A DNA stretch of 64,000 bases from Rhodoblastus sp. (GCA_047971685.1 JBKDZW010000089.1:4488-68487), one strand, 5' to 3'; positions 29,114 through 61,935 are shown, counted from the first letter of the stretch. A program made the numbers and translations. Notes: generated by a model not told the origin, from the letters alone.

Positions 29114-29117
29114 TGCG

Positions 29118-30583: not shown

Positions 30584-30598
30584 ACCGCTACCGCTACA

Positions 30599-33268: not shown

Positions 33269-33280
33269 CGCGGGTTCCTT

Positions 33281-33375
33281 TTATTGTCCAAGTGGCGGTT
33301 TATTGTCCAAGTGACGGCTTATTGTCCAAGTAGCGGCTTATTGTCCAAGTGGCGGCTTATTGTCCAAATGACATT
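33281..33375. repeat. 19-bp tandem repeat, 5 copies, immediately upstream of the arylsulfatase start
   Basis: TTATTGTCCAAGTGGCGG(T/C) units at 33281, 33300, 33319, 33338 and 33357, with 1-4 substitutions each. The first unit begins 13 nt from the ATG at 33268. Confidence 0.95.
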
Positions 33376-33614
33376 GATGCCGCCGGAGACAACATGCCCT
33401 CAATTCGGAGAAAGAGTAAAGGGCCTGGAGCGCAGACTCAAATATTGAATTTTGAACCCTATTTCAATCTATTAAACCCTGAGCTTTGGCAATAGGCTGG
33501 GGGTGGTGGCGGCTGTACAATATCGTCGCCGTCAAACCGCAGCTTAGGAAAGTATGGGCGTAACTTCATTGCGGATTACAGCCGGGGGAAACGTAACGCC
33601 GCTTCCGGCGTCAA

Positions 33615-33640
33615 AGATCGACATATAGAGATCGACATAT
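33615..33640. repeat. 14-bp direct repeat x2 (AGATCGACATAT-AG)
   Basis: agatcgacatat at 33615-33626 and again at 33629-33640. Confidence 0.8.
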
Positions 33641-33646
33641 GGCCTC

Positions 33647-33691
33647 TTTCACTGGATTGATTTTCACTGGATTGATTTTCACTGGATTGAC
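33647..33691. repeat. 15-bp tandem repeat, 3 copies (TTTCACTGGATTGAT), 34 nt upstream of the cytochrome gene
   Basis: Units at 33647-33661, 33662-33676 and 33677-33691. Only the last base of unit 3 differs. Confidence 0.95.
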
Positions 33692-33724
33692 GGTCCGGCG
33701 CCGTCGTGCATCAGGGCGCTCGTG

Positions 33725-45909: not shown

Positions 45910-47177
45910 AGGCGCACCAGCGGCAGAACGATGTCGCGGATTTTTCGCGCATAGGCGTCGTTGGAGAAATTCTCCTCGTAGAATTTCCGCGTGTCGCTGT
46001 TTTCGCGTGCTTTGCCCGATGCGGCGGGGTTGTTTTGCGGGCCGGCAAGCGCTGCTGCTTCGAGCGCGGCCGCAAACTCCGCCGCGCTTTCGCAGACCGA
46101 GACATTGGCGAGGCTGGCGGGGTCGACATTCATGCCGCGAAAGGCCTGCGGCGTGGCGATCAGCGGCGCGCCCGAAGACAGCGCCTCGACCGCCTTGATC
46201 GAAAGCCCGTGCCCTTCCGTGGTCGGCAGCAGGACAAGGCCGGCATTGGCGTAGACGGCGCCAATGTTGTCGACGCGGCCGAGAAAGGCATGGCGCCATT
46301 TCTCGTAAAGCGCGGGATTGCGCGCTTTCAGGGCGCCGTCGACATTGCCGGCGATCTCGACTTTCGCGCTGCGCGCGCACGGCGCGACATGTTCGAGAAA
46401 CCATTCGACGCTGAGCGTATTGGGATAATTTCCGCTCGCCACGATGGCGATATTGGCCCCGCCCGGCCCGGTCGGCGCTTCCTCGACTGCGGGGTAGACG
46501 AGTTCGTTGCGCATATCCGGCAGGAGTTGCGCGAATGTCGCCCATTCCTGCGCATTGAGGTGGACCAGCATGTCGGCCTTGCGCAAAAACTCCAGTTCGC
46601 GCGCCAGCAATTGATCGTAGGTCGCGCGCGGCGGCACGACGAAATGACCCTCGTTGCGCAGGTCGTATTGCAGGGCCTGCACGTCCTGCGTCTCGATCAC
46701 GAGCGGCGCCGTGGCCGAGAGATTGCGCGCGGCGGGAATGCAGAAAAAATGATTGCAATGGATGAGATCGATGGGGCGCAGCGCCAGTTCGTCCGGCAGG
46801 CGGGCAAATTGCGTCATCGCCGCCGTGGCGCGGGCGTGATCGCCGTGGATCAGCGGCCAGTAGAGCTGCGTCCAGAAGGCGGGTCTGGCGAAAACCGATC
46901 CCGGCATATTGGCGAAATAGCGCTCGTCGGCCGGCATGTCCCGGGTATTTTCGACATAATCGCGCCAGCGCGGGCTTTCCAGACTCGACTGGCCGGGCGG
47001 CCATTCGCGCACGGCCAGCGAGACGACATGGGCGCCGAGCCGCTTGTAGACAGCGGCCTGACTGACGTTGACCTGATAGGAGCCGCAGGAATGCCAGGCC
47101 GCATGCACGATCGCGACCGTCTTGCCTGCGAGTGGAAGCTCCTGATCTTCTTCCGTTTTTGGAATAGGCAGCGTCAA
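45906..47177 (-). CDS. GT-B-fold glycosyltransferase, paralog A of a tandem pair
   Basis: TTG start. Motifs …KTVAIVHAAWHSCGSYQV…IHCNHFFC…TEGHGLSIKAVEALSSGAPLIAT…. Confidence 0.8.
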   Translation of the reverse strand: MTLPIPKTEEDQELPLAGKTVAIVHAAWHSCGSYQVNVSQAAVYKRLGAHVVSLAVREWPPGQSSLESPRWRDYVENTRDMPADERYFANMPGSVFARPAFWTQLYWPLIHGDHARATAAMTQFARLPDELALRPIDLIHCNHFFCIPAARNLSATAPLVIETQDVQALQYDLRNEGHFVVPPRATYDQLLARELEFLRKADMLVHLNAQEWATFAQLLPDMRNELVYPAVEEAPTGPGGANIAIVASGNYPNTLSVEWFLEHVAPCARSAKVEIAGNVDGALKARNPALYEKWRHAFLGRVDNIGAVYANAGLVLLPTTEGHGLSIKAVEALSSGAPLIATPQAFRGMNVDPASLANVSVCESAAEFAAALEAAALAGPQNNPAASGKARENSDTRKFYEENFSNDAYARKIRDIVLPLVRL

Positions 47178-47275
47178 ATGGTCGTTCCTGCCGGGGCATC
47201 CCGCCTATTGTCCGGGCAGCTATTGTCTTGGCGGCCCCGGATATGGGACAAGGCGCGCGCGGACCCGGGAAGCCA

Positions 47276-48160
47276 ATGGGATCGGCGGGTCTTCATAAGG
47301 ATTATTTCGTGTCGAATCCAGAGCAAACGGCCAACGCCCCCAAACGCGGCATGGCCATTGTCGCAAACGACAGGATCGCGGAATGGCTCCTGCCCTTTCT
47401 GGAGAGCTGGAAGCGCGCCAATGCGCATATTCCGCTCTATCTCATCCCCTATGACGACAATCTGACCGTCACCCGCCGCGCCGCAAAGACCTATGGCGTG
47501 ACCATGGTGGAAGAGGTCGACAAGCGCATCGACCGGCTGGCGGCCGATCTCTATCCGCTTTTTCCCGGCCATCGCCGCCGCCTGCGCAAGCTGCAATCGC
47601 TGGCGCTGCCGCTCGACGAGGTGATCTATATCGACGTCGATATCGTGCTGTTCCGCGATTTCGCGCCGATGTTCGGCCTTCTGAAGAAGGACGAGACGGA
47701 ATTCATCGTGGCCTCGCCGTCCTTTGAATATGTCTACAACAAGAAGAAGGACGATTATCCAGACCTCAAGGACGCGCTGTTGTTCAACGACGGCTATTTC
47801 GTCACGTCCAGCAAGTTTCTCAATCTCGACATGTTCGTCGAGACCATGGCGCGCGATGCGAAACTGTTCCACAAGGTGCGCAAGCGCGGCATGCTGTTTG
47901 CCCAGCCCGTGGTGAATTTCACCTGCCACCGCAACGCCGTGAACATCCGCCTGATGTCCGACCTCATCGAAAACGCCTCGCACGAGACCTTCTACAAGGC
48001 GCAAGGCGTCACGTTCAAAGATGGCGCGCCGCTGGATTTCCAGGGCAAGGAAATCTACTTCTGTCACTGGGCGGGCCTGCAAAGCACACCCGGCAAACTC
48101 GCCTTCGACGACGCCTGGCGGGAGTTTTCGGATGCAGCCTGGGCGAAGGTCGGGCGGTAG
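47276..48160 (+). CDS. Hypothetical protein, possibly a GT-A/GT8-like nucleotide-sugar transferase
   Basis: ORF 47228..48160. I prefer the ATG at 47276, which is preceded by GGGAAG. DxD-like motif VIYIDVDIVLF, then …LFNDGYFV…. The family assignment is weak. Confidence 0.5.
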   Translation: MGSAGLHKDYFVSNPEQTANAPKRGMAIVANDRIAEWLLPFLESWKRANAHIPLYLIPYDDNLTVTRRAAKTYGVTMVEEVDKRIDRLAADLYPLFPGHRRRLRKLQSLALPLDEVIYIDVDIVLFRDFAPMFGLLKKDETEFIVASPSFEYVYNKKKDDYPDLKDALLFNDGYFVTSSKFLNLDMFVETMARDAKLFHKVRKRGMLFAQPVVNFTCHRNAVNIRLMSDLIENASHETFYKAQGVTFKDGAPLDFQGKEIYFCHWAGLQSTPGKLAFDDAWREFSDAAWAKVGR

Positions 48161-48172
48161 CAAACGGCGGAC

Positions 48173-49324
48173 ATGAACCAGACGCCGAAAATCCTTTCGA
48201 TCTATCTCGGCAAGCGCGTGCTGCTGGCAACGCTCGTCGTGCAGGTCGCGCTGACCATTCCGGTCGTGCTGTCGGCTCTGTTCCATCAATTGCCGCCGGC
48301 GGCGCTGCGTGGCGGCCTACTCGGCCCCGCGCTCGTCGGCACCTTGCCGACCGTCACCTATATCGCGCTGCCGATTTCGGTCGGCGTCGCCGCAGCGCTT
48401 GAATTTTCGCGCATGTCGTCCGAAGGCATGGTGGCGGTGCTCTATTCGCTGCGCCTGTCGGCCTGGTCGATTGCGCGTCCCGCCATCGTCTGCGCGCTCG
48501 GGGCGACCGCCGTCGGCTATCTGTGCTCTTGCTGGCTGGCGCCGCGCTATGTCGGCTCCATGCACGACGTGCTGAACGTCATCCGCCACTCGCTCAACCA
48601 TCGCATGCTCGAGGCCGGCCAGTTCTATTCCTTCGACGAGGGCCGGCGCATCGTCTTTTTCGAGCGCTGGGAGACCCCCGACATAGCCGCCAAGGTGTTC
48701 ATCCGGCAGCGCTCGCCGGAAAAGAAGGTCGAGGAGACGATCACGGCCGATCGCGCGGAATTCCGCCGCAACGATTTCAATGTCGTGATGATCCTGACCC
48801 ACGGGCAGATCCAGAGCCGCCCCGACGACGGGCGGCGCGTACGCGTGTCCGATTTCGACGAATACGCGATTTCGCTGCCCATGCAGGGCGCCAAGGCGCT
48901 GCCCTCGCGCTCCTGGAAGGGCGTGTTCGAGCTGAGCATGCCGGATTTCTTCGCCTATATGAAATACGCCATGGTCGACCGCCGCAATTTTGCGGAATGG
49001 GCGTCGGAGGCCGTCAAAAGGCTGGTGATTCCGGCGCTGGCGCTCGCCCATACGCTGCTGGGCGTCGGGCTGGTGCTCAATGTCGCCAGCGCAACCGGGC
49101 GGCGCTCGGCCGCCGGCGGGGCAGCGGTCGCCGCGCTGCCGGTCGTCCATATCGCCATTCTGGTGGCCGCCGAAACGCTGATCCGCGCCAATCCGGCGCT
49201 GGCGATCCTCGTCATCGGCCTGGCGCTTGCCGAAATCGCTTGCGGCATATGGCTCATCCAGCGCCAGCAGGTCGGCGATGCGCGCCGGGCGCCGCAAATT
49301 GCGCCGGTGCTTGCGGGGGCGTGA
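48173..49324 (+). CDS. LptF/LptG (YjgP/YjgQ) family permease, orphan copy
   Basis: N-terminal pattern …ILSIYLGKRVLLATLVVQVAL…. Also …EGMVAVLYSLRLSAWSIARPAIVCAL…. A periplasmic-sized middle region is followed by three C-terminal TM segments. It begins 12 nt after the preceding gene. Confidence 0.72.
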   Translation: MNQTPKILSIYLGKRVLLATLVVQVALTIPVVLSALFHQLPPAALRGGLLGPALVGTLPTVTYIALPISVGVAAALEFSRMSSEGMVAVLYSLRLSAWSIARPAIVCALGATAVGYLCSCWLAPRYVGSMHDVLNVIRHSLNHRMLEAGQFYSFDEGRRIVFFERWETPDIAAKVFIRQRSPEKKVEETITADRAEFRRNDFNVVMILTHGQIQSRPDDGRRVRVSDFDEYAISLPMQGAKALPSRSWKGVFELSMPDFFAYMKYAMVDRRNFAEWASEAVKRLVIPALALAHTLLGVGLVLNVASATGRRSAAGGAAVAALPVVHIAILVAAETLIRANPALAILVIGLALAEIACGIWLIQRQQVGDARRAPQIAPVLAGA

Positions 49325-49399: not shown

Positions 49400-50200
49400 T
49401 CAGGCCGCCTGCCCGCCACCGACGACGCCAGCGGCCTCGTCTTCCTCGTCCTTGCGGACTGCGGCCTTGTAGGCGGGGATGATGTCGTCGGGATGGCCCA
49501 CTTCGCGCACCACGCCGGCGTCGATCCAGATCACGCGGTCGCAAAGCGTGCGCAGATAGTCGAGCCCGTGCGAAACGACCAGAATCGTGCCGCGCTTGGA
49601 AAATTCGGCGATGAAATTCTCGCATTTCTGCGCGAAAGCCTCGTCGCCGACCGAAAGCGCCTCGTCGACGATCAGAATGTCGGCGTCGACATGGGCGCAG
49701 ATGGCGAAGGCAAGCCGCGCGATCATGCCGCTCGAATAGAGCTTCATCGGCTGATCGAAAAACATGCCGATCTCGGCGAAATCGGCGATCTGATCGAGCT
49801 TGGCGACGATCTCGCGACGCGAGAGCCCCAGGACCGCGCCGCCGATGATCGCATTTTCGCGGCCGGACAATGTGGCGTCGAAGCCCGAGCCAAGCGCCAG
49901 GATAGGCGCAATGCGGCCGCGGATTTCGACCGTGCCGGTGGTCGGGCGCGTGATGCCGCACAGGATCTGGAGAAGCGTCGTCTTGCCCGCGCCGTTGCGG
50001 CCGATGATGCCGACGCATTCGCCCTTCCTGATATCGAAGGTGATATCGCGCAGCACCCAATGCTTTCTGTAATAGGTCTTGGCCCAGCCAAACAGCGCCT
50101 GCATCAACTGGTCGTTGCGGCGCAGGTAGAGCTGGAAGGCCTTGCCTGCGTTGCGGCAGGAAATCGCCAGTTCGGAAGACATCGGGCGATCAGAGGACAT
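49400..50200 (-). CDS. ABC transporter ATP-binding protein (Wzt/KpsT/TagH-like polysaccharide/lipid export type)
   Basis: Walker A GRNGAGKTT. Signature YSSGMIARL. Walker B ILIVDEAL. The N-terminus …LFGWAKTYYRKHWVLRDITFDI… is typical of ABC-2 exporters. An alternative start lies at 50182. Confidence 0.9.
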   Translation of the reverse strand: MSSDRPMSSELAISCRNAGKAFQLYLRRNDQLMQALFGWAKTYYRKHWVLRDITFDIRKGECVGIIGRNGAGKTTLLQILCGITRPTTGTVEIRGRIAPILALGSGFDATLSGRENAIIGGAVLGLSRREIVAKLDQIADFAEIGMFFDQPMKLYSSGMIARLAFAICAHVDADILIVDEALSVGDEAFAQKCENFIAEFSKRGTILVVSHGLDYLRTLCDRVIWIDAGVVREVGHPDDIIPAYKAAVRKDEEDEAAGVVGGGQAA

Positions 50201-51023
50201 CGACGATCACCGATTTGTATTCCTTGAAGAAACCGTAGCCGAACAGAAAGACAGCGTAAGAGGCCACGAAGCACGCCAGATACATCCACGGATCGGGAAA
50301 GCGCTCGTAGATCACAAGATCGCGCAGCATGGCGATGTAATCGCCTACCAGGTTGAGCTTGATCCAGGGTTGCAGATTGGCCGGCAATTGTTCGATCTGG
50401 AAGAAAACCGGCGTGGCGAACATCATCAGCGGCACGATCGAAACCATGAGATGGGCGACGTCGCGGGTAAAAGCGCCCAGCGCCATCAGGAACCAGACGG
50501 TGCCGAGCATCAAAAGCATGAACGGCAGGATGATGAGGGGTACGAAAATCACCTTCCACGAAATGAAGTGGACGGTGGCCAGCCGCACGGCGAGCAGCGT
50601 GGCGAAGCTGATCGCGCCATAGACGAGCGCGCGGATGGTGGAGGTCCAGGCGATCGTCTCGGACGGAAAGATCGACTTCTTGATGAAATGGACGTGCTCG
50701 TGCAGCAGCGTGGGCGAGCGCGCCGCCAGTTCCGCGAACACGTTGAACAGGATGAGGCCGCAAAAACTTGCCGCTGCATAATCGTAGATCGGCACGCCGG
50801 CTGCGACCGTCGGCGTCGCAATGGTGAAGATCGCAGTATAGACCAGCAGCATGGCGAGCGGCGCGAAGATCGCCCAGATCCAGCCCAGGAAGGAATCGCG
50901 GAACCGCGAGGTCAGTTCGCGCCGCACGACCGCGCGGATCAGCTCCCGGTGGTGCCAGGCCCGCTCGAACGGCTCAGTCAGGAATATCGGCAAGTCCTGG
51001 ATTTTCAACGCTGTGATTTCCAA
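50190..51023 (-). CDS. ABC-2-type transporter permease (Wzm/KpsM-like)
   Basis: TTG start. …HRELIRAVVRRELTSRFRDSFLGWIWAIFAPL… matches the ABC-2 N-terminal signature. Six predicted TM segments. Confidence 0.87.
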   Translation of the reverse strand: MEITALKIQDLPIFLTEPFERAWHHRELIRAVVRRELTSRFRDSFLGWIWAIFAPLAMLLVYTAIFTIATPTVAAGVPIYDYAAASFCGLILFNVFAELAARSPTLLHEHVHFIKKSIFPSETIAWTSTIRALVYGAISFATLLAVRLATVHFISWKVIFVPLIILPFMLLMLGTVWFLMALGAFTRDVAHLMVSIVPLMMFATPVFFQIEQLPANLQPWIKLNLVGDYIAMLRDLVIYERFPDPWMYLACFVASYAVFLFGYGFFKEYKSVIVDVL

Positions 51024-51080
51024 ATATCAGAAAGCTCGGATCGTGCGGCCGGGAACGCGGGGATTTGCAGAAACGTCCGC

Positions 51081-51143
51081 AGACGCCGTCCTTGCGGCAT
51101 GGAGCGCCGTCCTTGCGGCAAGAAGCGCCGTCCTTGCGGCATC
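51081..51143. repeat. 21-bp tandem repeat, 3 copies, in the divergent promoter region between the ABC-2 exporter and the ACP operon
   Basis: (a/g)(g/a)(a/g)CGCCGTCCTTGCGGCA-- units at 51081-51101, 51102-51122 and 51123-51143. Confidence 0.9.
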
Positions 51144-51504
51144 GCCTTGACGGCGCGGTCTTTTCGGATCGACCAAAATATCCGCCTCAGGCCCGAATTC
51201 ACCTTTTCCCCGGCGTCCGTCGCACATGCGCGACAACGCCGCGGCCCCCGACCCCGCGCTGTAGACCAGTTCCGGCGGGCTTCGTCAACGTCCGGCGGGC
51301 CGGGCTGCGGGCCGGACTGCCGGCGTTGAGAGGCGAGTTTGCCGTCAGGGGCTTTATTTCCGGGCGCGACTGCCTTAACGAAGGCCAGCGCGAACCGCCC
51401 GGTTGCGGTCGCCGAGCGTTCGGGCGGGCCCGGCCGCTGATATTCACGTCCGACCCGGCGCCAGGCGGCCGGGCGGTCCGAAACCCGAGAAATGGGGACG
51501 CCCC

Positions 51505-51774
51505 GTGGACTCTGTTGCGCAAGGCGATGAATTCTACGCCCAGATCATTGAAGTGATTTCGAAAGAGGGCATGGTCGAGGCCGACAAGGTCAAGCCCGAA
51601 GCCACAATCGAAAGTCTCGATCTCAAGTCTATCGACATCGTCATGATTCTGACGGCGATCGAGGAAAAATTCGACGTCTACATTCCCATGGACGGGGCCT
51701 TTCAGGAGGCCAAGACCGTTCAGGATCTGATCGACGCGCTGGCGACCCATATCAACAAAGAGAAGAAAAACTGA
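51505..51774 (+). CDS. Acyl carrier protein (dedicated, non-housekeeping type)
   Basis: PP-binding pattern …IESLDLKSIDIVMILTAIEEKFDVYIP…, with Ser in the LKS position of the usual D-S-L motif. GTG start chosen at 51505 because there is no in-frame ATG. The stop is directly followed by the KAS ATG (TGAATG). Confidence 0.72.
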   Translation: MDSVAQGDEFYAQIIEVISKEGMVEADKVKPEATIESLDLKSIDIVMILTAIEEKFDVYIPMDGAFQEAKTVQDLIDALATHINKEKKN

Positions 51775-52992
51775 ATGACGCAGGGCCGTCGGGTCGTCAT
51801 CACCGGCATGGGCGCCGTCTCCGGCGCCGGCGTCGGATGGAAGCCGCTGTGGAACGCCGCCCGCGAGGGCGCGAGCGTGGTCCGCGCGCTTGAATTTGCG
51901 CGCGATTATCCCGGCCGCATTCGCATCGGCGCGCAGGTTCCCGATTTCGATGCGGCCAAGCTGATCGAGCGCTCCACGCTGATGTATTGCGATCCCTTCA
52001 CGCAATACGCGATTGTGGCCGCCGATCAGGCGGTGGCCGAAGCCGGTTTCGACAACAAAAATGTCGGCGGCGCCGATTGCGCGGTCATTCTGGGGTCGGG
52101 CATTGGCGGCATCCGCACCGTCGACGACGGTCTCTTCGCGCTCTACGCAAAGGGCGTGAAGCCGGAACCGCTGAGCATTCCCAAGCTGATCGCCAGCGCC
52201 GGCCCCTCGATGCTGTCCATCCGCTACGACGCGCACGGGCCGGTGTTTGCGGTGGCCAGCGCGTGTTCCTCCGCAAATCAGGCGATCGGCATGGGCATGC
52301 ACATGGTGCGCTCCGGCATGGCCGAGCGCGCCATTGTCGGCGGCGCCGAGGCGAGCCTTTCGGTCGGCACCCAGATGACCTGGGAAATGCTGCGTGTGCT
52401 GACGCCGGACAAATGCCGCCCCTTCTCCAAGGGCCGCAACGGCATGAGCATCGGCGACGGCGCGGCCATGTTCGTTCTGGAAACCGAGGAGGCGGCGATG
52501 GCGCGCGGCGCGCCGATCCTGTGCCGCCTCGTGGGCTACGGCACTTCGGCGGACGCGCGCGACCCGATCCGCCCCGACGCGGACGGCGCCTCGCTCGCCA
52601 TGCGCCGCGCCATCGCGGACGCCGATATTCCCGCCGACACGATCCAGTACGTCAATGCGCACGGCACGGCGACCGCGCTCAACGATCCCACGGAAGCCGA
52701 GGCCATGGGCCGCATTTTCGGCGACAGGCTGGCCGAGGTCGCGGTCTCCTCGACCAAGCCGGTGCACGGCCATGCGCTGGGAGCTGCCGGCGCGCTGGAG
52801 CTGGTCTGCACCATCATGGCGATGCGCGAAAACATTGCGCCGCCGACGATCAATTTCCTCGAACCCGACCCCAAATGCCCTGTGGATTGCGTGCCCAACC
52901 AGGCGCGCGCCATGACGATCCGCACGGCCATGACCAATTCCTTCGCCTTTGGCGGCGTGAACGCCTCGCTCGTCCTCCAGGCGGCGGACTGA
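51775..52992 (+). CDS. Beta-ketoacyl-ACP synthase (KAS I/II, FabF-like)
   Basis: …RRVVITGMGAVSG…. Active-site Cys context AVASACSSANQAIG. His motifs NAHGTAT and …KPVHGHALGAAG…. 405 aa. Confidence 0.92.
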   Translation: MTQGRRVVITGMGAVSGAGVGWKPLWNAAREGASVVRALEFARDYPGRIRIGAQVPDFDAAKLIERSTLMYCDPFTQYAIVAADQAVAEAGFDNKNVGGADCAVILGSGIGGIRTVDDGLFALYAKGVKPEPLSIPKLIASAGPSMLSIRYDAHGPVFAVASACSSANQAIGMGMHMVRSGMAERAIVGGAEASLSVGTQMTWEMLRVLTPDKCRPFSKGRNGMSIGDGAAMFVLETEEAAMARGAPILCRLVGYGTSADARDPIRPDADGASLAMRRAIADADIPADTIQYVNAHGTATALNDPTEAEAMGRIFGDRLAEVAVSSTKPVHGHALGAAGALELVCTIMAMRENIAPPTINFLEPDPKCPVDCVPNQARAMTIRTAMTNSFAFGGVNASLVLQAAD

Positions 52993-52999
52993 GGGCGTC

Positions 53000-53422
53000 A
53001 TGGGCGTGGAGAGGCCGCTCGGGCCGCAGGAAACGGCCCTCGGTCCGTTCGAGGCTCTGGCCGATCCCGCCGCCATCGCCGCATTCAAGGCGGCGCTTGA
53101 CGCCCCGGGCGCGGTTCTTGACGCATCCGGCGCCGAAATTCCGGCGACTTTCCCGATTGTCTGGCTCTCTCTCCCCGCGCTCAAGACGGCGCTGCGCGAA
53201 GCCGCCGGCGCCGGCCACCTGCCGGTCCACGAATCCCAGTCCTTCGATTATGCGCAGCCGCTCGTTTCCGGCGCCGCCTATCGTATGAGCGTTGCGGCGC
53301 AACGCGAGAACGCCCCCCCGCGCCTCGTGGTCGAGGCTAAGGTCGCAGACGCCTCCGGCGCGAAAATCGTGACCATGCGCGCTGCGCTGCGGCTCGTTCC
53401 GCTGGCGGAGGGCGGCGCATGA
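53000..53422 (+). CDS. Hotdog-fold protein, MaoC_dehydrat_N / HadA-like (non-catalytic dehydratase subunit candidate)
   Basis: 140 aa, with pattern …PATFPIVW…ESQSFDYAQPLVSGAAY…RLVVEAKVADASG…. 4-nt overlap with the following MaoC gene. The assignment is by fold-like pattern and context. Confidence 0.6.
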   Translation: MGVERPLGPQETALGPFEALADPAAIAAFKAALDAPGAVLDASGAEIPATFPIVWLSLPALKTALREAAGAGHLPVHESQSFDYAQPLVSGAAYRMSVAAQRENAPPRLVVEAKVADASGAKIVTMRAALRLVPLAEGGA

Positions 53423-53823
53423 AACTTCCGGTTTCGCGCGGCGACACGATGCCGGAAACCATTGTCGGCCCGTTCGACGCGGCTGCGGTCGCAGCCTATG
53501 CGGCCGCCTCCGGCGACGACAATCCCTTGCATCTCGACGCTGCGCTTGCCGCCCGCGCAGGATTTGCCGCTCCGCCAGTCCATGGCATGCGGCTGATGGC
53601 CGAAATCGCGCCTGCGCTTGCCGCCTGGCGGCCGGACATGGCGCTCAAGCGCCTGTCGGCCACTTTCGTCGAGCCGTTGCTGGTCGGCGAGGAGGCGCGT
53701 CTTACGGCCCGCGTTCTTCGCGCGGAAGGCGACGTTCTGATGCGCATCGCCATCCAGGGGCCGCGTCGCGGTCCAAGCGTTCTGGCGGAAGCCGTTCTGG
53801 TTGCAAGGGCGGGCGCGTCATGA
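53419..53823 (+). CDS. MaoC-like (R)-specific hydratase/dehydratase (HadB-like catalytic subunit candidate)
   Basis: Hydratase-2 type motif …ASGDDNPLHLDAALAARAGFAAPPVHGM…. 134 aa. ATGA overlaps on both sides. Confidence 0.8.
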   Translation: MKLPVSRGDTMPETIVGPFDAAAVAAYAAASGDDNPLHLDAALAARAGFAAPPVHGMRLMAEIAPALAAWRPDMALKRLSATFVEPLLVGEEARLTARVLRAEGDVLMRIAIQGPRRGPSVLAEAVLVARAGAS

Positions 53824-54617
53824 GTCCTGCGCCGCGCTCCATCCTGATTACCGGCGCCTCCAGCGGCATTGGCCGGGCGCTTGCCCGCGAATATGCCGCG
53901 CCCGGCGTACGGCTGACGCTGGTTGGCCGCGACGGCGCGCGGCTTTCGGCCGCCGCCTCGGAATGCCGCGTCAAGGGCGCGGAAGTCGAAATCGGCCAGG
54001 TGGATGTGCGCGACCGGCAGGGCATGCACGATTTCTTGCGCGCTGCGGATGCAAAAGCGCCGCTCGATCTGGTGGTCGCCAACGCCGGCGTCAACACCGG
54101 CCTGCCGGCAGGCGCGCTCGCCGAAGATCCGGAAGCTGTGCGCGGCATTTTCGCGATCAACCTCCTCGGCGTTTTCAACACGGTGGAACCCATGATCGAG
54201 CCGATGGCCGCGCGTGGAAAAGGCGTGATCGCGATGACCGGCTCGATCGCCGCCGTGCGCGGCCTGCCCTATTCGCCGTCCTATTGCGCGACCAAGGCGG
54301 CGGTCCATCTTTACGCGGAATCCTTGCGCGGAACGCTCGCCCGCAAGGGCGTGACGGTCAGCCTGATCGTGCCGGGCTTCGTCCATACCGCGCTCAACGA
54401 GAAGCTGACCTCGCCGAAGCCGCTCGCCATGACCGACGAGCGCGCCGCGCGCATCGTCCGGCGCGGGCTCGACCGGCGCAAGGCCAACATCGTCTTCCCG
54501 CGCCTGCTGTATTGGGGGGCGCGGCTGCTGACGGTCCTGCCGGCGCGGCTCGTCGATTTCTTCATGGTGCGCCAGTATGTCGACGTGCCGGTCACGCGCG
54601 AGAGGATGACGCCTTGA
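53820..54617 (+). CDS. Classical SDR oxidoreductase (ketoacyl-ACP reductase or 3-ketosphinganine/oxo-ceramide reductase candidate)
   Basis: TGASSGIGRALA Rossmann motif, NAG motif, and catalytic S…YCATK. Confidence 0.88.
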   Translation: MSPAPRSILITGASSGIGRALAREYAAPGVRLTLVGRDGARLSAAASECRVKGAEVEIGQVDVRDRQGMHDFLRAADAKAPLDLVVANAGVNTGLPAGALAEDPEAVRGIFAINLLGVFNTVEPMIEPMAARGKGVIAMTGSIAAVRGLPYSPSYCATKAAVHLYAESLRGTLARKGVTVSLIVPGFVHTALNEKLTSPKPLAMTDERAARIVRRGLDRRKANIVFPRLLYWGARLLTVLPARLVDFFMVRQYVDVPVTRERMTP

Positions 54618-55786
54618 ACGTCGCTCTCGACATCCTGCGTTGGGCCACGCTCGTTTTCTGCGCGATCTCGCTCGCCGGCCTCGTGCTGACCGTAGCGCTC
54701 GGACTGATCTCGCCGCTGATCCATGCGCGCCGCGCGCGCAGGTCCGATCTGCCGCCGATCAGCTTTATCCTGCCTATCAAGGACTGGGCGACAAGCTTCG
54801 GTCCTTCGCAATCCTCGGTCTTTGCGCTCGACTATCCCGAATATGACGTGACCGCGACGGCGGCGGAGGCCGAATCGCAGGCCGTAACGGCGATGCGCGA
54901 CATTATTGCCGCCCATCCCGACCGCCCGGCCAAACTGGTGCAATCGACGGCCAGCTTTGCCGTCAGCCCCAAGGTCAACAATATTTACAGCGCGATCGAG
55001 GAGGCCAGATACGATCTCATCGCCACCAAGGATTGCAACATCGTGTTGCCGCCGCGCACCGCGCGCATGGCGGTCGCCGCCATGACCGAGAACGTGGGGC
55101 TTGTGACCGCCATAACCGAGGCGCGCGGCGCGACCTCGCTGGCGGCGCGGATCGAGGCCTCGATCATGAACCAGTCGCATGCGCGCTATCTTCACGCAGC
55201 GGCCGCGCTGGGGCTCGGTTTCGGGCTCGGCAAGCTGATGATCTTCAAGCGCTCGGATCTGCACCGGGCCGGCGGTTTTGAAGCCATCGCCCATACCGTG
55301 GGCGAGGATTCGGCGACCGCCCATGCGCTTGCAGGCATCGGCCTGCGCACGGTCATCATCGGCGCGCCGATCTATCAGGTGCTGGGCGCGCGCAAATTCG
55401 GCGATATGCACAACCGTCAGATGCGCTGGGCCGTCATAAGGCGCCAGAACGAACTGGCCGGTTTTCTGGCCGAACCTTTCGGCCTGTCGGTCTTTGTGGC
55501 GCTGGCGGCGGCTTTTGCGGCGCCGCTTCTTGGCTGGAGCGCGCCGGGCGCCTTTCTGGCGACGCTCGTCTTCTGGTTTGCCTGCGAAACCGCGCTTGCC
55601 TTGGCGCGGGGCTGGGATGTATCGGTGAGCGCGCCCTTCGTCATGGTCGCCCGCGATGCGATGATGGCTTCGGTCTGGCTGCGCGCCTGGTTCACCAGGC
55701 GGGTCGTCTGGGCGGCCGAAGTTTACGAGGCGCAGCAGGAGCGTGGCTCGATGCCTGCCCCCGCCCAGAAAAGGAATGATGCGTGA
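54614..55786 (+). CDS. GT21-family glycosyltransferase (ceramide glucosyltransferase / UGCG-like)
   Basis: A TTG start overlaps the SDR stop (TTGA). Regions align by eye to human UGCG: LPPISFILPIK…FALDYPEYDV, SPKVNNIYSAIEEARYDLIATKDCNIVLPP, MTENVGLVTAI, GEDSATAHAL, and Q-x-RW (NRQMRWAVIRR). The 661-aa ORF in the track includes an out-of-frame leader. Confidence 0.8.
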   Translation: MNVALDILRWATLVFCAISLAGLVLTVALGLISPLIHARRARRSDLPPISFILPIKDWATSFGPSQSSVFALDYPEYDVTATAAEAESQAVTAMRDIIAAHPDRPAKLVQSTASFAVSPKVNNIYSAIEEARYDLIATKDCNIVLPPRTARMAVAAMTENVGLVTAITEARGATSLAARIEASIMNQSHARYLHAAAALGLGFGLGKLMIFKRSDLHRAGGFEAIAHTVGEDSATAHALAGIGLRTVIIGAPIYQVLGARKFGDMHNRQMRWAVIRRQNELAGFLAEPFGLSVFVALAAAFAAPLLGWSAPGAFLATLVFWFACETALALARGWDVSVSAPFVMVARDAMMASVWLRAWFTRRVVWAAEVYEAQQERGSMPAPAQKRNDA

Positions 55787-57060
55787 CGGCGCAAGGATTG
55801 CTCGTCGGATTGATCGACATTGCGCTCACGCTATGCGTTCTCGGCATGGCGGCGATTGGCGCGAGCCTGCTCGTTCTGGTGGTTCGCTTTCTCTACGACC
55901 AGGCGCGCGGCGCAGGCGACGGTTCACGCGACGTCGCGCCGCTGGCGGAAGCCGACCTGCCGCATGTCGTCCTGCAAATTCCCGTTTTCAACGAGCCGCG
56001 CGTGGTGATCGGCGCCCTGCGCGCCGCCGCCGCGCTCGATTGGCCGCGCGAAAAACTGCACCTTCAATTGCTCGACGATTCCACCGACGAGACCACCGAG
56101 CGCGCCGCCGAACTGATCGCGGAATTGCGCGCCGAGGGCCACGACGTGCGCCATGTGCGCCGCGAGGACCGCACGGGCTTCAAGGCCGGCGCGTGCGCCG
56201 CCGGTCTGGCGCTCGACGATTCGCCGTTCGTGGCGATGCTCGATGTCGATTTCCGCCCGCCGGCCGACTGGCTGCGCAAGGCCATTCCCGTCATCGTCGG
56301 CGATCCCAAGGCCGGCTTCGTGCAGGCGCGCTGCGAATTCGCCAATTACCGCAAAAACTGGCTGACGCGCGTACAGGGCCTGATCCTCGACGGCCATTTC
56401 ATGATCGAGCAGCGCACCCGCGCCAATCTCGGCTGGCTGTTCCAGTTCAACGGCACGGGCGGCATATGGCGGCGCGCAGCCATCGATTCGGTCGGCGGCT
56501 GGCAGGATTATTCGCTGACCGAAGACCTCGACCTCACCATCCGCACCGCGCTTGCCGGCTGGCACGGCCGGTTCATTTCCGAGCCCGCCAGTCCCGGCCA
56601 GATGCCCGAGGGCATGCGCGACTGGCGCCGCCAGCAGCGCCGCTGGTCCAACGGCTTCATTCAGGTCGCCCAGCGGACGCTCGGACCGATCTGGACCGCG
56701 CCATGGAGCCTGGCCGAACGCCTGTCCTCGATCATGCTCGTGCTGCATCAGGTGTTCTTTCCGTTGTGCGCGGGCGCAATCATCCTCATCATTCTCGGCA
56801 TTCTGGCGCGAGGAATCTCGATTGCAGCCTATCTGCCGCTGTTCGGCCTGATCTTCCTGATGGTCTGCGCGGTCGTGATCGGCATGACCCTGCCGCCCTC
56901 TCTCGCGCTCAAGCGTGGGTCGTTCTGGCGCTATCTCGCCACCATGGCCATGCTGCCGCCGCTGTTCATCTATCTGGCCGTCGCCAATGCGCCGAAAATC
57001 ATCCAGACCGCGCGCGGGCGGCAGGAGCATTTCAAGCGCACGCCCAAGAAAGAGCATTAA
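55783..57060 (+). CDS. Family 2 glycosyltransferase, processive type (CslA / MGlcDG-synthase-like), membrane-embedded
   Basis: A GTG start overlaps the GT21 stop (GTGA). Motifs: …VVLQIPVFNE…, LLDDSTD, MLDVDF, TEDLDL and QQRRW (QxxRW). N-terminal and multiple C-terminal TM segments. Confidence 0.87.
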   Translation: MTAQGLLVGLIDIALTLCVLGMAAIGASLLVLVVRFLYDQARGAGDGSRDVAPLAEADLPHVVLQIPVFNEPRVVIGALRAAAALDWPREKLHLQLLDDSTDETTERAAELIAELRAEGHDVRHVRREDRTGFKAGACAAGLALDDSPFVAMLDVDFRPPADWLRKAIPVIVGDPKAGFVQARCEFANYRKNWLTRVQGLILDGHFMIEQRTRANLGWLFQFNGTGGIWRRAAIDSVGGWQDYSLTEDLDLTIRTALAGWHGRFISEPASPGQMPEGMRDWRRQQRRWSNGFIQVAQRTLGPIWTAPWSLAERLSSIMLVLHQVFFPLCAGAIILIILGILARGISIAAYLPLFGLIFLMVCAVVIGMTLPPSLALKRGSFWRYLATMAMLPPLFIYLAVANAPKIIQTARGRQEHFKRTPKKEH

Positions 57061-57259
57061 CGCAACCTGCCCACGGCAATTTCACGGGGCGCGGTCGGAG
57101 ACGGCCGAAGACGGGCAGGCGCAGCCCTTGCCGCTTCGGCATCGTTTGCAGCAGACCTGCCTCGCGCCGTTTGCGGACCGTCTGCGCTTGGCGCGGCAGG
57201 AAGGCGCTTGCTAGTCTTGCCTCGATAATCTGCCTGGAACCAGAACCTTCATGTCGCAG

Positions 57260-57334
57260 GAACGCCTGAAAGGCGCCTTTTAAAGAACGCCTGAAGGGCG
57301 CGTTTTAAAGAACGCCTGAAAGGCGCGTCGCGAA
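57260..57334. repeat. 25-bp tandem repeat, 3 copies, each unit containing a small hairpin plus T-run
   Basis: GAACGCCTGAAAGGCGCCTTTTAAA-type units at 57260-57284, 57285-57309 and 57310-57334. Each has the stem CGCCT-GAA-AGGCG. Confidence 0.92.
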
Positions 57335-57455
57335 GGATGGCCAAAGGCCCGGAAACCCGGCTTGTGTTTCGGGACGGGCGCCTTGCGGCCCTCCGGCATG
57401 AAGGGCCGGGGCGGCCGGAGTTTCCCTCCAGGCTCCGATAAACGGGAGGATCGGC

Positions 57456-58907
57456 ATGGACGACAAACTTGCATTCGCCTCGGCGGCCACGCTCGCAAAA
57501 CTGGTGCGCGAAAAAAAGGTCGGGGCGGTCGAACTTCTGGAATTCTTTCTTGCGCGCGTCGAACGCCACAATCCCACTCTCAACGCCATCATCGTCCAGC
57601 GCGCGGACGCCGCCAGAAAAGAGGCTGCGGCCTGCGACGCCATGACCGCGAAAGGCCAGTCGATGGGGGCGCTGCACGGCGTGCCCATGACGGTCAAGGA
57701 ATCCTTCGATGTCGCGGGCACGCCGTCCACCTGGGGATTGACGGCGTTCCGCGACAATATCGCGGCCAGGGACGCGCTTTCCGTCGAGCGGTTGAAGGGC
57801 GCTGGCGCGGTCGTTTTCGGCAAGACCAATGTGCCGGCCTGGCTTGCCGACTGGCAATCGTTCAACCCGATCTACGGCACGACCAACAATCCCTGGAATG
57901 TCGGGCGCACGCCGGGCGGTTCTTCAGGCGGCAGCGCGGCGGCGCTGGCGGCGGGACTCACGGGGCTGGAGATAGGCAGCGACATCGGCGCCTCCATCCG
58001 CGATCCCGCCCATTATTGCGGGGTTTACGGCCACAAGCCGACCTTCGACATCTGCCCGCGCGACGGCCATCTCCTGCCCGGCGCCTATGCCCACGGCGAT
58101 ATTTCCGTGATCGGCCCGCTGGCGCGCTCGGCCTACGATCTGGAGACCGCGCTCGACATTATCGCAGGGCCCAATGCGCTCGAGGCCACGGGGCTGCGCC
58201 TGGAATTGCCGCGCTCGAAAAAGACGAAACTGTCGGAGTTTCGCGTCGCCGTCATGCCTTCGGCCGACACCGCGCCGGTCGATGGCGCCGTGCGTGAAAA
58301 AATCGAGGAGCTTGCCGGTTTTCTGGAAGGCCAGGGCGCCCATGTCGATCGCGCCGCGCGCCCCGTCGATCCAGCCGCCGCGCACGAGACCTACATCATG
58401 CTCCTGCGCTCGGCGACCAGCGGCGCGCTCGATGACGCGGTTTACGAAAAATTGCTGGCTGCGCGAAAAGAGGTTGCAGGGCGCAACGATTATTTCGCCT
58501 GGCATGCGCGCGCAAACACGATGGGCCATCGCGAATGGCTGCGCTGGAACAATGCCCGCGCGAAAATGCGGCTCGACTGGCAGGCGTTTTTTACCCGCTT
58601 CGATCTCCTGCTCTGCCCGACCGCCACGACAACCGCGTTTCCGCACATGCAGACCGGCGAGCGCTGGGAACGCATGATTTCGGTCGACGGCAAGGACCAG
58701 CCGACGACGACGCAGCTTTTCTGGGCGGGCTATTCCGGCATGGTCGATCTGCCATCGACCATCGCGCCGCTCGGGCTGGCGAAAGACGGCCTGCCGGTCG
58801 GCGTGCAGATCGTGGCGCCGGCCTATCGGGATCACAGCGCCATCCGCTTCGCGCAATTGCTGGAAGACCGGTATCGCGCGTTCGAGCCGCCGCCGGGGTT
58901 TGCATAA
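57456..58907 (+). CDS. Amidase-signature (AS) family amidase
   Basis: AS motif GGSSGGSAAALAAG, catalytic Lys context VPMTVKESF, and …GSDIGASIRDPA…. RBS GGGAGGA. Confidence 0.9.
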   Translation: MDDKLAFASAATLAKLVREKKVGAVELLEFFLARVERHNPTLNAIIVQRADAARKEAAACDAMTAKGQSMGALHGVPMTVKESFDVAGTPSTWGLTAFRDNIAARDALSVERLKGAGAVVFGKTNVPAWLADWQSFNPIYGTTNNPWNVGRTPGGSSGGSAAALAAGLTGLEIGSDIGASIRDPAHYCGVYGHKPTFDICPRDGHLLPGAYAHGDISVIGPLARSAYDLETALDIIAGPNALEATGLRLELPRSKKTKLSEFRVAVMPSADTAPVDGAVREKIEELAGFLEGQGAHVDRAARPVDPAAAHETYIMLLRSATSGALDDAVYEKLLAARKEVAGRNDYFAWHARANTMGHREWLRWNNARAKMRLDWQAFFTRFDLLLCPTATTTAFPHMQTGERWERMISVDGKDQPTTTQLFWAGYSGMVDLPSTIAPLGLAKDGLPVGVQIVAPAYRDHSAIRFAQLLEDRYRAFEPPPGFA

Positions 58908-58939: not shown

Positions 58940-59626
58940 TCAGAGCGGCTTGTCGCCGGGCTTGTCGTCCTTGGCATAGCCGGTGCCGAACACATCGTCC
59001 CAATAAGGGCAGCTCACGCCATAGCCGCGGTCGGGATCGCGGAAATGATGCAGGAGGTGCGCACGGCGCAGGATCTGCTCGACCCTGGTGTGCGGCGGGC
59101 GGTGATGAATGTGGTAGTGGATCTCGTCGTAGAGCACGTAGCCGACGAGGAAGCCGGCCGTGATCGAATAGGACAGAGGCTCCGGAAACAGCAGGGTGAT
59201 CACGACATAAGCGAGCGCCATCAGCGGCACGCTCATCAGCAGGGGCATGACGAGGCGCAGGGGATCGCTCGGATGCACGTGATGCACGCCGTGCAGCAGG
59301 AAGTGGATGCGCTCGCCGATCCTGCCGGGAAATTCCGTGTGAAAGACCCAGCGATGGAAGACATATTCGCAGAGCGTCCAGGCGATATAGCCGAAGATCA
59401 GGCAGGCGATGGTGATGAACGCCGGTTGCCCCCTGGCGCCGAGCCAGCCGAGCCAGGCGGCGAAGGGAAGATAGAACAGCGGCGCCCACCAGGGTACGCG
59501 CGAAAGCAGGTCCAGCACACGATTGTCGAAAATGCGCGGCGAGGCCGCCAGAAGCTCGGCCTTGCTCATGCCCTGCGTCGACATATGCGCGTATGGGTCG
59601 CGCGCGGTTTGCGTCGTGTCGCTCAT
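58940..59626 (-). CDS. Fatty acid 2-hydroxylase (FA2H/Scs7-like, fatty-acid hydroxylase superfamily) lacking a cytochrome b5 domain
   Basis: His boxes and flanks align by eye with human FA2H: WTLCEYVFHRWVFH, HFLLHGVHHVHPSDPLRLVMP, GYVLYDEIHYHIHH and LRRAHLLHHF…GYGVS…WDDVFGT. Confidence 0.85.
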   Translation of the reverse strand: MSDTTQTARDPYAHMSTQGMSKAELLAASPRIFDNRVLDLLSRVPWWAPLFYLPFAAWLGWLGARGQPAFITIACLIFGYIAWTLCEYVFHRWVFHTEFPGRIGERIHFLLHGVHHVHPSDPLRLVMPLLMSVPLMALAYVVITLLFPEPLSYSITAGFLVGYVLYDEIHYHIHHRPPHTRVEQILRRAHLLHHFRDPDRGYGVSCPYWDDVFGTGYAKDDKPGDKPL

Positions 59627-59636: not shown

Positions 59637-60647
59637 TCACGCCGCCGCAGTCGGCGCGCTTGTCGCCGGCGCCGGCGTACTTGCCGCCGGCGCCGCGCCG
59701 AGATTCTCGGTGCGCGACATCAGCGAATATCGCGGGTTGAAGATGAAATCGAAGAACAGTTTCACCCAGGATTTGTGGGCGTGCAGGTTATTGTAGAATT
59801 CCGGCGCCGTGGCCTTCAACCTGGGCAGCAGGGCCCAGGGGATTTCCTGAAAATCGTGATGTTCGTTGTGATAGCCGATGTTGAGCGCGAAGAAGTTCAG
59901 GGGGCCGTAGTAATCGAACGTGCCCTGCCCCGGCCAGGCCGCGTAATGCTCCTGAATCCAGCGCGCGCCCAGCGGATGCAGGCCGACCGAGAACCAGAAG
60001 GAAGCAAACAGGTAAAACAGCGCATTGCCGCCGAGGAAATACCAGACCGCGATGTCGAAGACCGCGATGACGGCGAAATTGACGTAGGTCCACAGGCCCC
60101 AGATCGGCACCGTGCCCTTGAGGCGGTAGATGCGGGTGAGCTGCATCACGGGGAAGAAGAACAGCCACAGGGCTTTGCGCCACCAGACATTGCCGACGAG
60201 TTTTGCCTCCCAGCCGGAGGGCACGTCGGCGTCGTAATCGTAGCTGGACAGATGCGAATGGTGCTTCACATGGTAGCAGCGAAAGCCCATGGCGGTCGGA
60301 AAGGCGTTGGGCAGATCGGCCAGAATCGCATTCCATTTGTTGAGCGTGGGGCTCTGGAACACGGCGTTGTGGATGGAATCGTGAATGATCACGAACATGG
60401 CGTGATTGGCGAATGCGCCGATTCCATAGGCGAGCAGCAGGGTCGCCCACCAATAGGACATGCCGAGATAGCCCATCCAGGCGGCGATCGCGACTTGCAG
60501 GACGAATACGCCGGCGGTGATCCAGAAGGTTCTGATGTCGCGCACCATGAGCTGGGCCACTTCCGGATGGGCGGCCAGGATCGCCTTGCGGCGATCGACA
60601 TGGCTTCGGTCGACGCCGAGAGCGGTAACGGGAACGCTCATGTTCAT
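59637..60647 (-). CDS. Sphingolipid Delta4-desaturase (DEGS1/Des1-like; Lipid_DES N-terminal region plus FA desaturase domain)
   Basis: Collinear by eye with human DEGS1: HVDRRKAILAAHPEVAQLM, NHAMFVIIHDSIHNAVF, FRCYHVKHHSHL, GLHPLGARWIQEHY, YYGPLNFFALNIGYHNEHHDFQEIP and SWVKLFFDFIFNPRYSLMSR. It carries an extra Ala/Pro/Thr-rich C-terminal tail. Confidence 0.9.
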   Translation of the reverse strand: MNMSVPVTALGVDRSHVDRRKAILAAHPEVAQLMVRDIRTFWITAGVFVLQVAIAAWMGYLGMSYWWATLLLAYGIGAFANHAMFVIIHDSIHNAVFQSPTLNKWNAILADLPNAFPTAMGFRCYHVKHHSHLSSYDYDADVPSGWEAKLVGNVWWRKALWLFFFPVMQLTRIYRLKGTVPIWGLWTYVNFAVIAVFDIAVWYFLGGNALFYLFASFWFSVGLHPLGARWIQEHYAAWPGQGTFDYYGPLNFFALNIGYHNEHHDFQEIPWALLPRLKATAPEFYNNLHAHKSWVKLFFDFIFNPRYSLMSRTENLGAAPAASTPAPATSAPTAAA

Positions 60648-61863: not shown

Positions 61864-61935
61864 GGCGCCGCCCATAGCACGGACGCAGGCCGGAACCAAC
61901 GCCGGCCTGCGCGAATTGGAGCGGTTCCAGACGGG

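Follow-up and report, generated by a model that had tools for sequence, protein, structure and literature searches.

We describe here a seven-gene operon in a 64,000-nucleotide (nt) stretch of DNA from Rhodoblastus sp. (GCA_047971685.1 JBKDZW010000089.1:4488-68487; hereafter the window, with positions counted from its first letter). The operon encodes an acyl carrier protein (ACP), a beta-ketoacyl-ACP synthase (KAS), two small hotdog-fold proteins (HotA and HotB), a short-chain dehydrogenase/reductase (SDR) and two glycosyltransferases (GT21 and GT2). The operon is real and conserved, and it represents a variant, so far undescribed, of both the specialized ACP/KAS lines and the bacterial glycosphingolipid loci; the searchable literature yielded neither a description of such an operon nor a report of sphingolipids in the taxa that carry it. 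We tentatively favor, with a confidence that stops somewhat short of even, the interpretation that the first five genes are the front of an operon that works with a neighboring operon for an Spt-like synthase, a bCerS-like N-acyltransferase, a desaturase and a hydroxylase to make a glycosphingolipid. The ACP-KAS-HotA-HotB cassette would then act as a side branch of type II fatty acid synthesis (FAS II), with the SDR as its ketoreductase.

A sequence-only reading of the window had proposed a module of five translationally coupled genes, encoding an ACP, a KAS, a HadA-like and a HadB-like hotdog protein and an SDR, at positions 51505–54617. Five plus-strand open reading frames are present exactly there, and Pfam and NCBIfam models, together with motif residues, bear out the five identities. 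The junctions also agree: the TGA stop codon of the ACP gene is followed without a gap by the ATG of the KAS gene, 7 nt separate KAS from hotA, and both hotA/hotB and hotB/SDR overlap by ATGA. The size of the module had to be revised, as the coupling runs past position 54617: the SDR stop codon overlaps the TTG start of the GT21 gene (TTGA), whose own stop overlaps the GTG start of the GT2 gene (GTGA). The conserved unit is therefore the seven-gene operon ACP-KAS-hotA-hotB-SDR-GT21-GT2, in which a cassette of four genes (ACP-KAS-hotA-hotB) is joined to the SDR gene and to two glycosyltransferase genes. It is kept in about 60 genomes of Beijerinckiaceae, Methylocystaceae and Labrys. Because the same order recurs with the same tight junctions at more than 80 independent loci, the arrangement is not due to chance. 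A promoter and terminator scan of positions 50900–57600 returned nothing above shuffled expectation.

The same reading held that the module lacks an enoyl reductase and an acyltransferase. Neither an enoyl reductase nor a malonyl transferase was detected with Pfam or NCBIfam models in the operon or in the scanned neighboring genes, and an enoyl reductase was absent from every one of the more than 100 loci that we looked at. The absence of an acyltransferase holds for the operon but not for its surroundings, where, 6 kb downstream and on the opposite strand, there is a gene for a bCerS/YghO-family N-acyltransferase.

Related loci were collected with two anchors. A scan with a hotA profile, covering one genome per species, gave 66 loci, from Rhodoblastus, Methylocystis, Methylosinus, Methylocapsa, other Beijerinckiaceae/Methylocystaceae, two Labrys species and one member of the Devosiaceae; tblastn of all the window proteins against these loci placed the seven genes in order almost everywhere. 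One locus, from a metagenome-assembled genome (MAG) of the Beijerinckiaceae (L050, 8495–10402), carries ACP-KAS-hotA with no detectable hotB, SDR or glycosyltransferase genes downstream and may be truncated or rearranged. The second anchor was the bCerS-like gene, for which six look-ups were combined with a scan of metagenomes that covered 80 loci.

Several distinct layouts were found to bring the operon and the sphingolipid genes together. The layout of the window recurs in L002, L004–L010 and L078. About 18 loci (L057, L065, L070, L072, L076, L082 and others) are convergent, with Spt-bCerS-DES, where DES stands for the Lipid_DES desaturase, facing GT2-SDR-hotB-hotA-KAS-ACP. In Labrys, L147, L143 and L150, the bCerS-like gene is followed directly by the ACP and KAS genes, and the Devosiaceae locus (L069) has a PAP2-bCerS-ACP-KAS-hotA-hotB operon 2.5 kb from Spt and near LptFG-like genes, with an SDR on the other strand. 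The Spt-bCerS-DES(-hydroxylase) core stands alone in about 17 loci and is joined by GT2 only in L091, L095, L102 and L107; of the seven operon genes, GT2 is the most frequent neighbor of the core, including in loci that lack the other six. Every Spt-bCerS core comes with a Lipid_DES desaturase. The proposed link between the module and its Spt- and bCerS-like neighbors is thus supported by an adjacency that recurs in at least four layouts, in loci that lack AcpR, AasR and Epi. Because the layouts are unrelated to each other, we regard the functional link to the sphingolipid genes as strong.

The assignment of the N-acyltransferase came from profile alignment. The profile of its 411-residue family matched E. 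coli BL21 YghO over the full length (hhalign probability 100, E=4.6e-71, 37% identity, 372 columns), and on the strength of this match we assign the gene to the bCerS/Aca family. The Spt-like protein is 33% identical to E. coli BL21 Spt and carries an N-terminal extension of about 40 residues. It scores below all three NCBIfam SPT cut-offs (206 bits vs 670 for the alphaproteobacterial SPT model), with bioF as its best model, and appears to belong to a divergent clade of alpha-oxoamine synthases. Its gene is the first of its own operon; an Hsp20 gene lies divergently upstream, where there is no ACP gene or acpR.

As a reference we used the E. coli BL21 locus, which comprises yghO (aca), aasR, epi, acpR and spt (PMC9386255). 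In alpha-, beta- and gamma-Proteobacteria, acpR precedes spt and aasR co-occurs, the SPTs prefer acyl-AcpR loaded by AasR, and ceramide formation needs an epimerase-type reductase (PMC9386255). A tblastn search with the AasR, Epi and AcpR of E. coli BL21 returned no homologue either from the window or from the roughly 100 loci of the kind described here. Canonical loci were recovered among those examined: L146, L148 and L149 carry Spt-AcpR-Epi-AasR beside a 36%-identical bCerS, and L151 and L153 have an Epi homologue alone. Since E. coli BL21 Epi matched only these loci, the window holds no homologue of CerR/Epi (CC_1164/ECD_02852), and the SDR could at most be its analogue in function. The dedicated ACP, the loading enzyme and the ketoreductase of the canonical type are absent, and the locus instead holds the ACP, the KAS with the dehydratase pair, and the SDR.

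The first gene of the operon encodes a dedicated ACP. The serine of its LKS motif, which the sequence-only reading had singled out as a point to check, is Ser42 (DLKSID); it aligns with the invariant attachment serine of orthologous and AcpR-type ACPs and is the conserved predicted 4'-phosphopantetheine site at the start of helix II. The protein scores below every NCBIfam ACP cut-off and is 41–73% identical to its orthologues, 33% to AcpP and 24% to NodF. It does not belong with AcpR, to which it is 31–37% identical, no better than to AcpP; there is neither an acpR-spt operon nor an AasR homologue in the locus.

The KAS has the features of an elongating KAS I/II enzyme, namely the Cys164/His296/His333 triad, Lys328 and both ketoacyl-synt domains. 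It falls below the models for housekeeping FabF (389.2 bits vs a cut-off of 493.75 for fabF TIGR03150; 380.6 vs 387 for PRK07314) and shares 39% identity with E. coli FabF, 42% with NodE of the Rhizobium leguminosarum sym plasmid, which served as the NodE reference, and 50–60% with its orthologues. Across the family, the identities are 42–48% to NodE and 37–44% to FabF. At this identity, and with no nod genes in the window or in related loci, we do not class the enzyme as a NodE. The closest plasmid-borne relative of the KAS (48%) is part of an ACP-KAS pair on Xanthomonas sacchari plasmid NZ_CP010410 (L073, 441994–443514), which adjoins genes for a 355-residue GNAT protein, an arginase-family protein and two aminotransferases. 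These genes may form a further cluster for an N-acyl lipid or an aminolipid; their GNAT protein is no homologue of bCerS.

The next two genes encode the hotdog proteins. HotB keeps the hydratase-2 residues of a catalytic subunit of the HadAB type, Asp33 and His38, within the motif GDDNPLH, in which G32, D33, N35, P36 and H38 are invariant in seven of seven aligned orthologues. Its best relatives in the Protein Data Bank (PDB) are PhaJ (1iq6, 6e-11), a subunit of a mycobacterial MaoC heterodimer and HadB (3e-4). HotA had no match in Pfam, NCBIfam or PDB sequences; a hit of its profile to an SDR among the PDB sequences (E=0.46) was set aside as chance. The AlphaFold2 model of HotA (predicted local distance difference test score 87) adopts a hotdog fold, and the best Foldseek matches, at a template-modeling (TM) score of about 0.6, are PhaJ, the HadA chains of HadAB, HadC/HadD and ChsH1/ChsH2. 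A full HMMER scan with the HotA profile gave a family of 411 representative proteins. Single-chain fusions of HotA and HotB, 270–301 residues long and with the domains in gene order, occur naturally (P0403, P0414, P0425, P0431, P0459, P0467 and P0470; loci L166 and L167), with the gene order ACP-KAS-fusion or KAS-fusion-SDR. Locus L166 also has a sulfotransferase-like gene, located upstream of its ACP-KAS-fusion genes and divergent from them. The catalytic residues kept in HotB, the similarity of the HotA model to HadA chains and the fusions all speak for the HadAB-like pair read from the sequence. The analogy is well supported at the level of architecture but is not one of sequence membership, because HotB scores about 30 bits against the HadB models (29.9 vs a cut-off of 203 for HadB NF010246; 32.6 vs 350 for fused HadA/HadB NF040620).

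The fifth product is a classical SDR by its motifs: TGASSGIG at residues 11–18, NAG at 88–90, Ser142 and Tyr155-x3-Lys159. Its best NCBIfam model is PRK07024 (198 bits, below the cut-off of 266), whereas the FabG models gave 100–110 bits against cut-offs of 222–298 (TIGR01830, 102 vs 298; PRK12826, 110 vs 222), and it shares 30% identity with E. coli FabG. The KAS and the SDR are thus both distinct from housekeeping FabF and FabG; they do not group with these enzymes, an outcome that would have told against the sequence-only reading. The PDB sequence neighbors of the SDR are generic (clavulanate dehydrogenase, 17-beta-hydroxysteroid dehydrogenase and FabG-like proteins) and do not discriminate its substrate. 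In nearly all loci the start of the SDR gene overlaps the end of hotB by ATGA, and the gene also comes after the fused hotAB gene in L167, a locus too short to show more than KAS, fused hotAB and SDR.

Table 1 Genes of the seven-gene operon and of its surroundings in the window
Gene or product	Position	Strand	Length (aa)	Basis or remark
Dedicated ACP, GTG start	51505–51774	+	89	PF00550, E=9e-8
Elongating KAS (KAS I/II type, NodE/FabF-like)	51775–52992	+	405	PF00109, E=1e-39; PF02801, E=5e-33
hotA, putative non-catalytic HadA-like hotdog subunit	53000–53422	+	140	Predicted fold; invariant motif PVHESQSF
hotB, catalytic MaoC/hydratase-2 hotdog subunit (HadB/PhaJ-like)	53419–53823	+	134	PF01575 (MaoC_dehydratas), E=1e-13
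Classical NAD(P)-dependent SDR	53820–54617	+	265	PF00106 (adh_short), E=4e-43
GT21-family glycosyltransferase (ceramide glucosyltransferase/HpnI family)	54614–55786	+		PF13506, E=3e-42
GT2-family glycosyltransferase	55783–57060	+		PF13632, E=5e-27
FA_hydroxylase	58940–59626	-		Pfam
Sphingolipid desaturase (Lipid_DES + FA_desaturase)	59637–60647	-		Pfam
bCerS/Aca (YghO-family) N-acyltransferase	60664–61899	-	411	No Pfam match; profile alignment to YghO
Spt-like alpha-oxoamine synthase	61936–63273	-		PF00155; best PDB match Sphingobacterium SPT
Nucleotide-sugar transferase-like gene (Npun_R2821 family) and two GT1 genes	44674–48160			Upstream of the operon
LptF/G-like permease	48173–49324	+		Probable lipid export
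ABC-2 transporter ATPase	49400–50200	-		Probable lipid export; divergent from the operon
ABC-2 transporter permease	50190–51023	-		Probable lipid export; divergent from the operon

The window has a G+C content of 64%, and a homologue search matched its KAS, at 100% identity, with a protein from a MAG of Rhodoblastus sp. Taken together, the genes between about 44.7 and 63.3 kb look like a glycosphingolipid locus (Table 1). The GT21 gene is kept after the SDR gene in most loci; the best NCBIfam match of its product is HpnI (144 bits vs a cut-off of 310), and a link to hopanoids through this likeness found no support, as no hopanoid gene was seen in any locus. The PAP2_3 protein gene that precedes bCerS in the Devosiaceae locus (L069, 2706–3620) belongs to a family that includes enzymes resembling sphingomyelin and inositol phosphorylceramide synthases and hints, for that locus, at a phosphosphingolipid head group rather than a sugar. 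The LptF/G-like and ABC-2 genes are syntenic with the operon in L002, L049, L063 and L071. In Caulobacter, LptF/G paralogues encoded in the sphingolipid locus export sphingolipids (bioRxiv 10.64898/2026.04.12.717747). The LptF/G-like gene of the window parallels the sphingolipid-specific LptF2/G2 of Caulobacter, and also the lptF/lptG paralogues beside spt of E. coli BL21 (L162).

Between GT2 and the hydroxylase, the Rhodoblastus loci have an inserted amidase gene (57456–58907 in the window), whose product passes the PRK06170 cut-off. The slot is variable, being occupied by an unrelated SDR gene in L002 and L013 and by a small GNAT gene in L071; the amidase may act, for example, as a ceramidase. 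The SDR that lies by the hydroxylase in L002 was considered as a general ketosphinganine reductase and rejected, since it occurs in one lineage only and is absent from the window. Elsewhere in the window, positions 27198–35746 hold a minus-strand operon of the order MoxR AAA-DUF58-VWA-VWA-TPR (Bat-like), a sulfatase at 31685–33268 and a 674-residue multihaem cytochrome c with C-terminal TPR repeats at 33722–35746; all are unrelated to the operon described here.

How might the operon contribute to sphingolipid synthesis? The substrates and products proposed below, and the part given to the SDR, are our interpretation of the gene identities, catalytic residues, operon conservation, sphingolipid linkage and absence from the locus of AcpR, AasR and Epi described above. 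The private ACP would be malonylated by the housekeeping FabD, and the KAS would condense a fatty acyl primer from bulk FAS II onto the malonyl-ACP. The SDR would reduce the resulting 3-oxoacyl-ACP, and a HotA/HotB heterodimer would dehydrate the product, with HotB as the catalytic subunit and HotA shaping a long-chain pocket as HadA does. The enoyl intermediate would probably be reduced by the housekeeping FabI. The outcome would be an acyl-ACP pool committed to sphingolipids and consumed by the bCerS-like N-acyltransferase, by Spt or by both: the adjacency of bCerS to ACP-KAS favors the former, which is a likely consumer of acyl-ACP, and the AcpR precedent favors the latter. GT21 and GT2 would then glycosylate the ceramide, and the ABC-2 and LptFG-like proteins would export it, most likely as a glycosphingolipid of the outer membrane. 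The ACP-KAS-dehydratase cassette would in this clade stand in for AcpR and the acyl-ACP synthetase AasR.

Several observations weigh against this scheme. About 40 operon loci of Methylocystis and Methylosinus have no sphingolipid gene within 10 kb, and about half of all Spt-bCerS-DES clusters lie apart from any module. In exact-sequence cluster look-ups, bCerS-like proteins encoded by core-only operons came from MAGs labeled Methylocystis sp. or Methylocystaceae, so that a core operon unlinked to the module is plausible in the Methylocystaceae, on evidence that concerns the names of the MAGs rather than core and operon in one genome. The contributions of FabD and FabI are assumed. Finally, L071, which is syntenic with the window, carries SDR-GT21-GT2 straight after the ABC-2 genes, with no Ns in the sequence and no remnants of ACP, KAS, hotA or hotB. 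Its SDR has intact motifs and is only about 71% identical to its nearest relative. A role purely as ketoreductase does not sit well with the intact SDR of a locus that lacks the KAS cassette.

The SDR is either the ketoreductase of the module or a sphingolipid 3-ketoreductase. The latter, which the sequence-only reading had offered as its alternative, assigns to the SDR the reduction of 3-oxo-sphinganine or 3-oxo-ceramide in place of CerR/Epi, while the four-gene cassette would borrow FabG, FabD and FabI as NodFE does; the function of the locus would be the same. We consider this alternative rather unlikely, although it deserves to be taken seriously. Besides L071, the operons of the Devosiaceae locus and of L166 stop after hotB with no SDR in line, and no locus of this type, nor the window, has the Epi/CerR homologue that canonical loci carry. 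The low identity to FabG and the proximity to PRK07024 point the same way. On the other hand, the ATGA coupling to hotB in nearly all loci ties the SDR to the cassette, and the order KAS-hotAB-SDR is kept even in the distant lineage with the fusion. Methylocystis operons far from any sphingolipid gene contain the SDR as well, and the four-gene cassette could sit elsewhere in the genome to which L071 belongs. Since the Spt-bCerS-DES clusters L074, L075, L091 and L095 have no SDR nearby either, little weight attaches to the lack of Epi in a locus.

A more far-reaching reading is that of a second, non-orthologous ceramide pathway in the Beijerinckiaceae, the Methylocystaceae (including type II methanotrophs) and Labrys, bacteria that are not known to make sphingolipids. 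Here the cassette would replace AcpR/AasR, the SDR would replace CerR, and the cassette, lacking an enoyl reductase, would provide a glycosylated sphingolipid, exported to the outer membrane, with a chain of an unusual kind (2-enoyl, 3-hydroxy or very long). In this full form we hold the proposal to be unlikely.

The nature of the acyl chain bears on a further alternative, namely that the set lacks an enoyl reductase by design and that its product retains a 3-hydroxy, 2-enoyl or conjugated polyenoyl function, as with NodFE and the aryl polyenes, giving an unusual N-acyl chain or, if used by Spt directly, a 4-unsaturated base. Such products had been suggested from the sequence because no enoyl reductase was seen. 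That absence stands, throughout the loci examined, and it goes together with a dedicated dehydratase and reductase and with a KAS somewhat closer to NodE than to FabF, whose orthologues JGI names NodE. The deduction from it is weak. The rhizobial AcpXL very-long-chain system (AcpXL/FabZXL/FabF1XL/FabF2XL) has no enoyl reductase and yet makes a saturated chain, and a missing enoyl reductase does not by itself prove an unsaturated product. The operon, moreover, has a single KAS, no chain-length factor and no polyene-type accessory genes, and with a Lipid_DES desaturase beside every Spt-bCerS core, a desaturase-free route to Delta-4 unsaturation is not needed. We therefore regard this alternative as improbable.

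More improbable still is a glycolipid independent of sphingolipids, such as a glycosylated hydroxy-fatty acid or some other glycolipid of the envelope, with the proximity of Spt reflecting only the clustering of envelope-lipid genes. The operons that stand alone, in Methylocystis and Methylosinus as well as in L049 and L063, agree with this idea, as do the lack of an Spt gene within 10 kb in Labrys and the HpnI likeness of GT21, whose relatives also act on hopanoids and diacylglycerol. Against it speak the linkage to Spt or bCerS in unrelated layouts, the bCerS-like gene directly upstream of ACP-KAS in Labrys, L147, L143, L150 and L069, and GT2, whose orthologue is the gene most tightly tied to the Spt core. 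Methylocystis-labeled MAGs do encode bCerS-like operons, and the operon itself contains no release enzyme, whether thioesterase or acyltransferase. That the genes are ordinary housekeeping FAS II paralogues (FabF, FabG, FabZ-like and AcpP) with no dedicated product is hardly credible: in the PDB the KAS does match FabF enzymes best, but all the proteins score below the NCBIfam equivalog cut-offs, with 39%, 30% and 33% identity to E. coli FabF, FabG and AcpP, the dehydratase is of the MaoC/HadAB type and not FabZ or FabA, the taxonomic range is narrow and the genes are always in one operon with glycosyltransferases.

Bacterial ceramide synthesis has been worked out only recently. The family of loci described here pairs Spt and bCerS with an ACP, a ketosynthase, a HadAB-like dehydratase and a classical SDR, with no AcpR, AasR or Epi nearby, and its specific implication is a non-orthologous replacement of AcpR/AasR and possibly of CerR. 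If these proteins are functional replacements, the acyl chain would be committed to sphingolipids by chain extension and not by fatty-acid activation, and in the SDR there would be a candidate sphingolipid ketoreductase of an alternative kind. One would also predict glycosphingolipids in methanotrophs and acidophilic Beijerinckiaceae, for which the searchable literature reports none; if present, they would bear on membrane biomarkers and on outer-membrane biology.

Five known systems invite comparison. The AcpR/AasR/SPT system of Caulobacter crescentus, E. coli BL21 and Sphingomonas (PMC9386255) shares with the window a specialized ACP, an N-acyltransferase of the bCerS/YghO family, an Spt-type synthase and LptF/G paralogues. 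The window lacks an acpR-spt operon, an acyl-ACP synthetase and Epi/CerR, and it differs further in an ACP with only 31–37% identity to AcpR that is paired with a condensing enzyme and a dehydratase instead of an ATP-dependent ligase, and in its divergent Spt clade. Rhizobial NodF/NodE likewise consist of a private ACP followed by a FabF-like KAS with the Cys-His-His triad; because both sets are without an enoyl reductase and a malonyl transferase, both would rely on housekeeping FAS enzymes, and the product goes to an N-acylated glycolipid, as we infer for the window operon. The sequences are distant (42% identity for the KAS, 24% for the ACP), nod genes are lacking, and the window adds the dehydratase pair and the SDR. 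Mycobacterial FAS-II (AcpM, KasA/B, MabA, HadAB/HadBC) resembles the set in its MaoC-type (3R)-hydroxyacyl-ACP dehydratase, made of a catalytic and a non-catalytic hotdog subunit encoded by overlapping genes and also existing in fused forms, a pairing that is predicted for the window. It differs in phylum and in sequence, with HadB and fused-HadAB models at 30–33 bits vs 203–350 and HotA similar to HadA in fold only (TM about 0.6); the window has no InhA, and its operon includes glycosyltransferases.

Aryl-polyene (APE) clusters also combine an ACP, a KAS, a hotdog dehydratase pair and a ketoreductase and have no enoyl reductase. The window, however, has no ketosynthase/chain-length factor pair, aryl-starter ligase or second ACP, and it lacks all the LolA-like, transport and glycosyl/acyl transferase genes that characterize APE clusters; its context is one of sphingolipid genes. 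The rhizobial AcpXL-FabZXL-FabF2XL-FabF1XL-AdhA2XL-LpxXL cluster is a further parallel within the Hyphomicrobiales: it too has a dedicated ACP, KAS, dehydratase and dehydrogenase, is without an enoyl reductase or malonyl transferase and feeds an envelope-lipid acyltransferase. Against it, the window operon has one KAS rather than two, a MaoC pair in place of a FabZ-type dehydratase, an SDR in place of a zinc-dependent alcohol dehydrogenase, and a bCerS-like partner in place of LpxXL.

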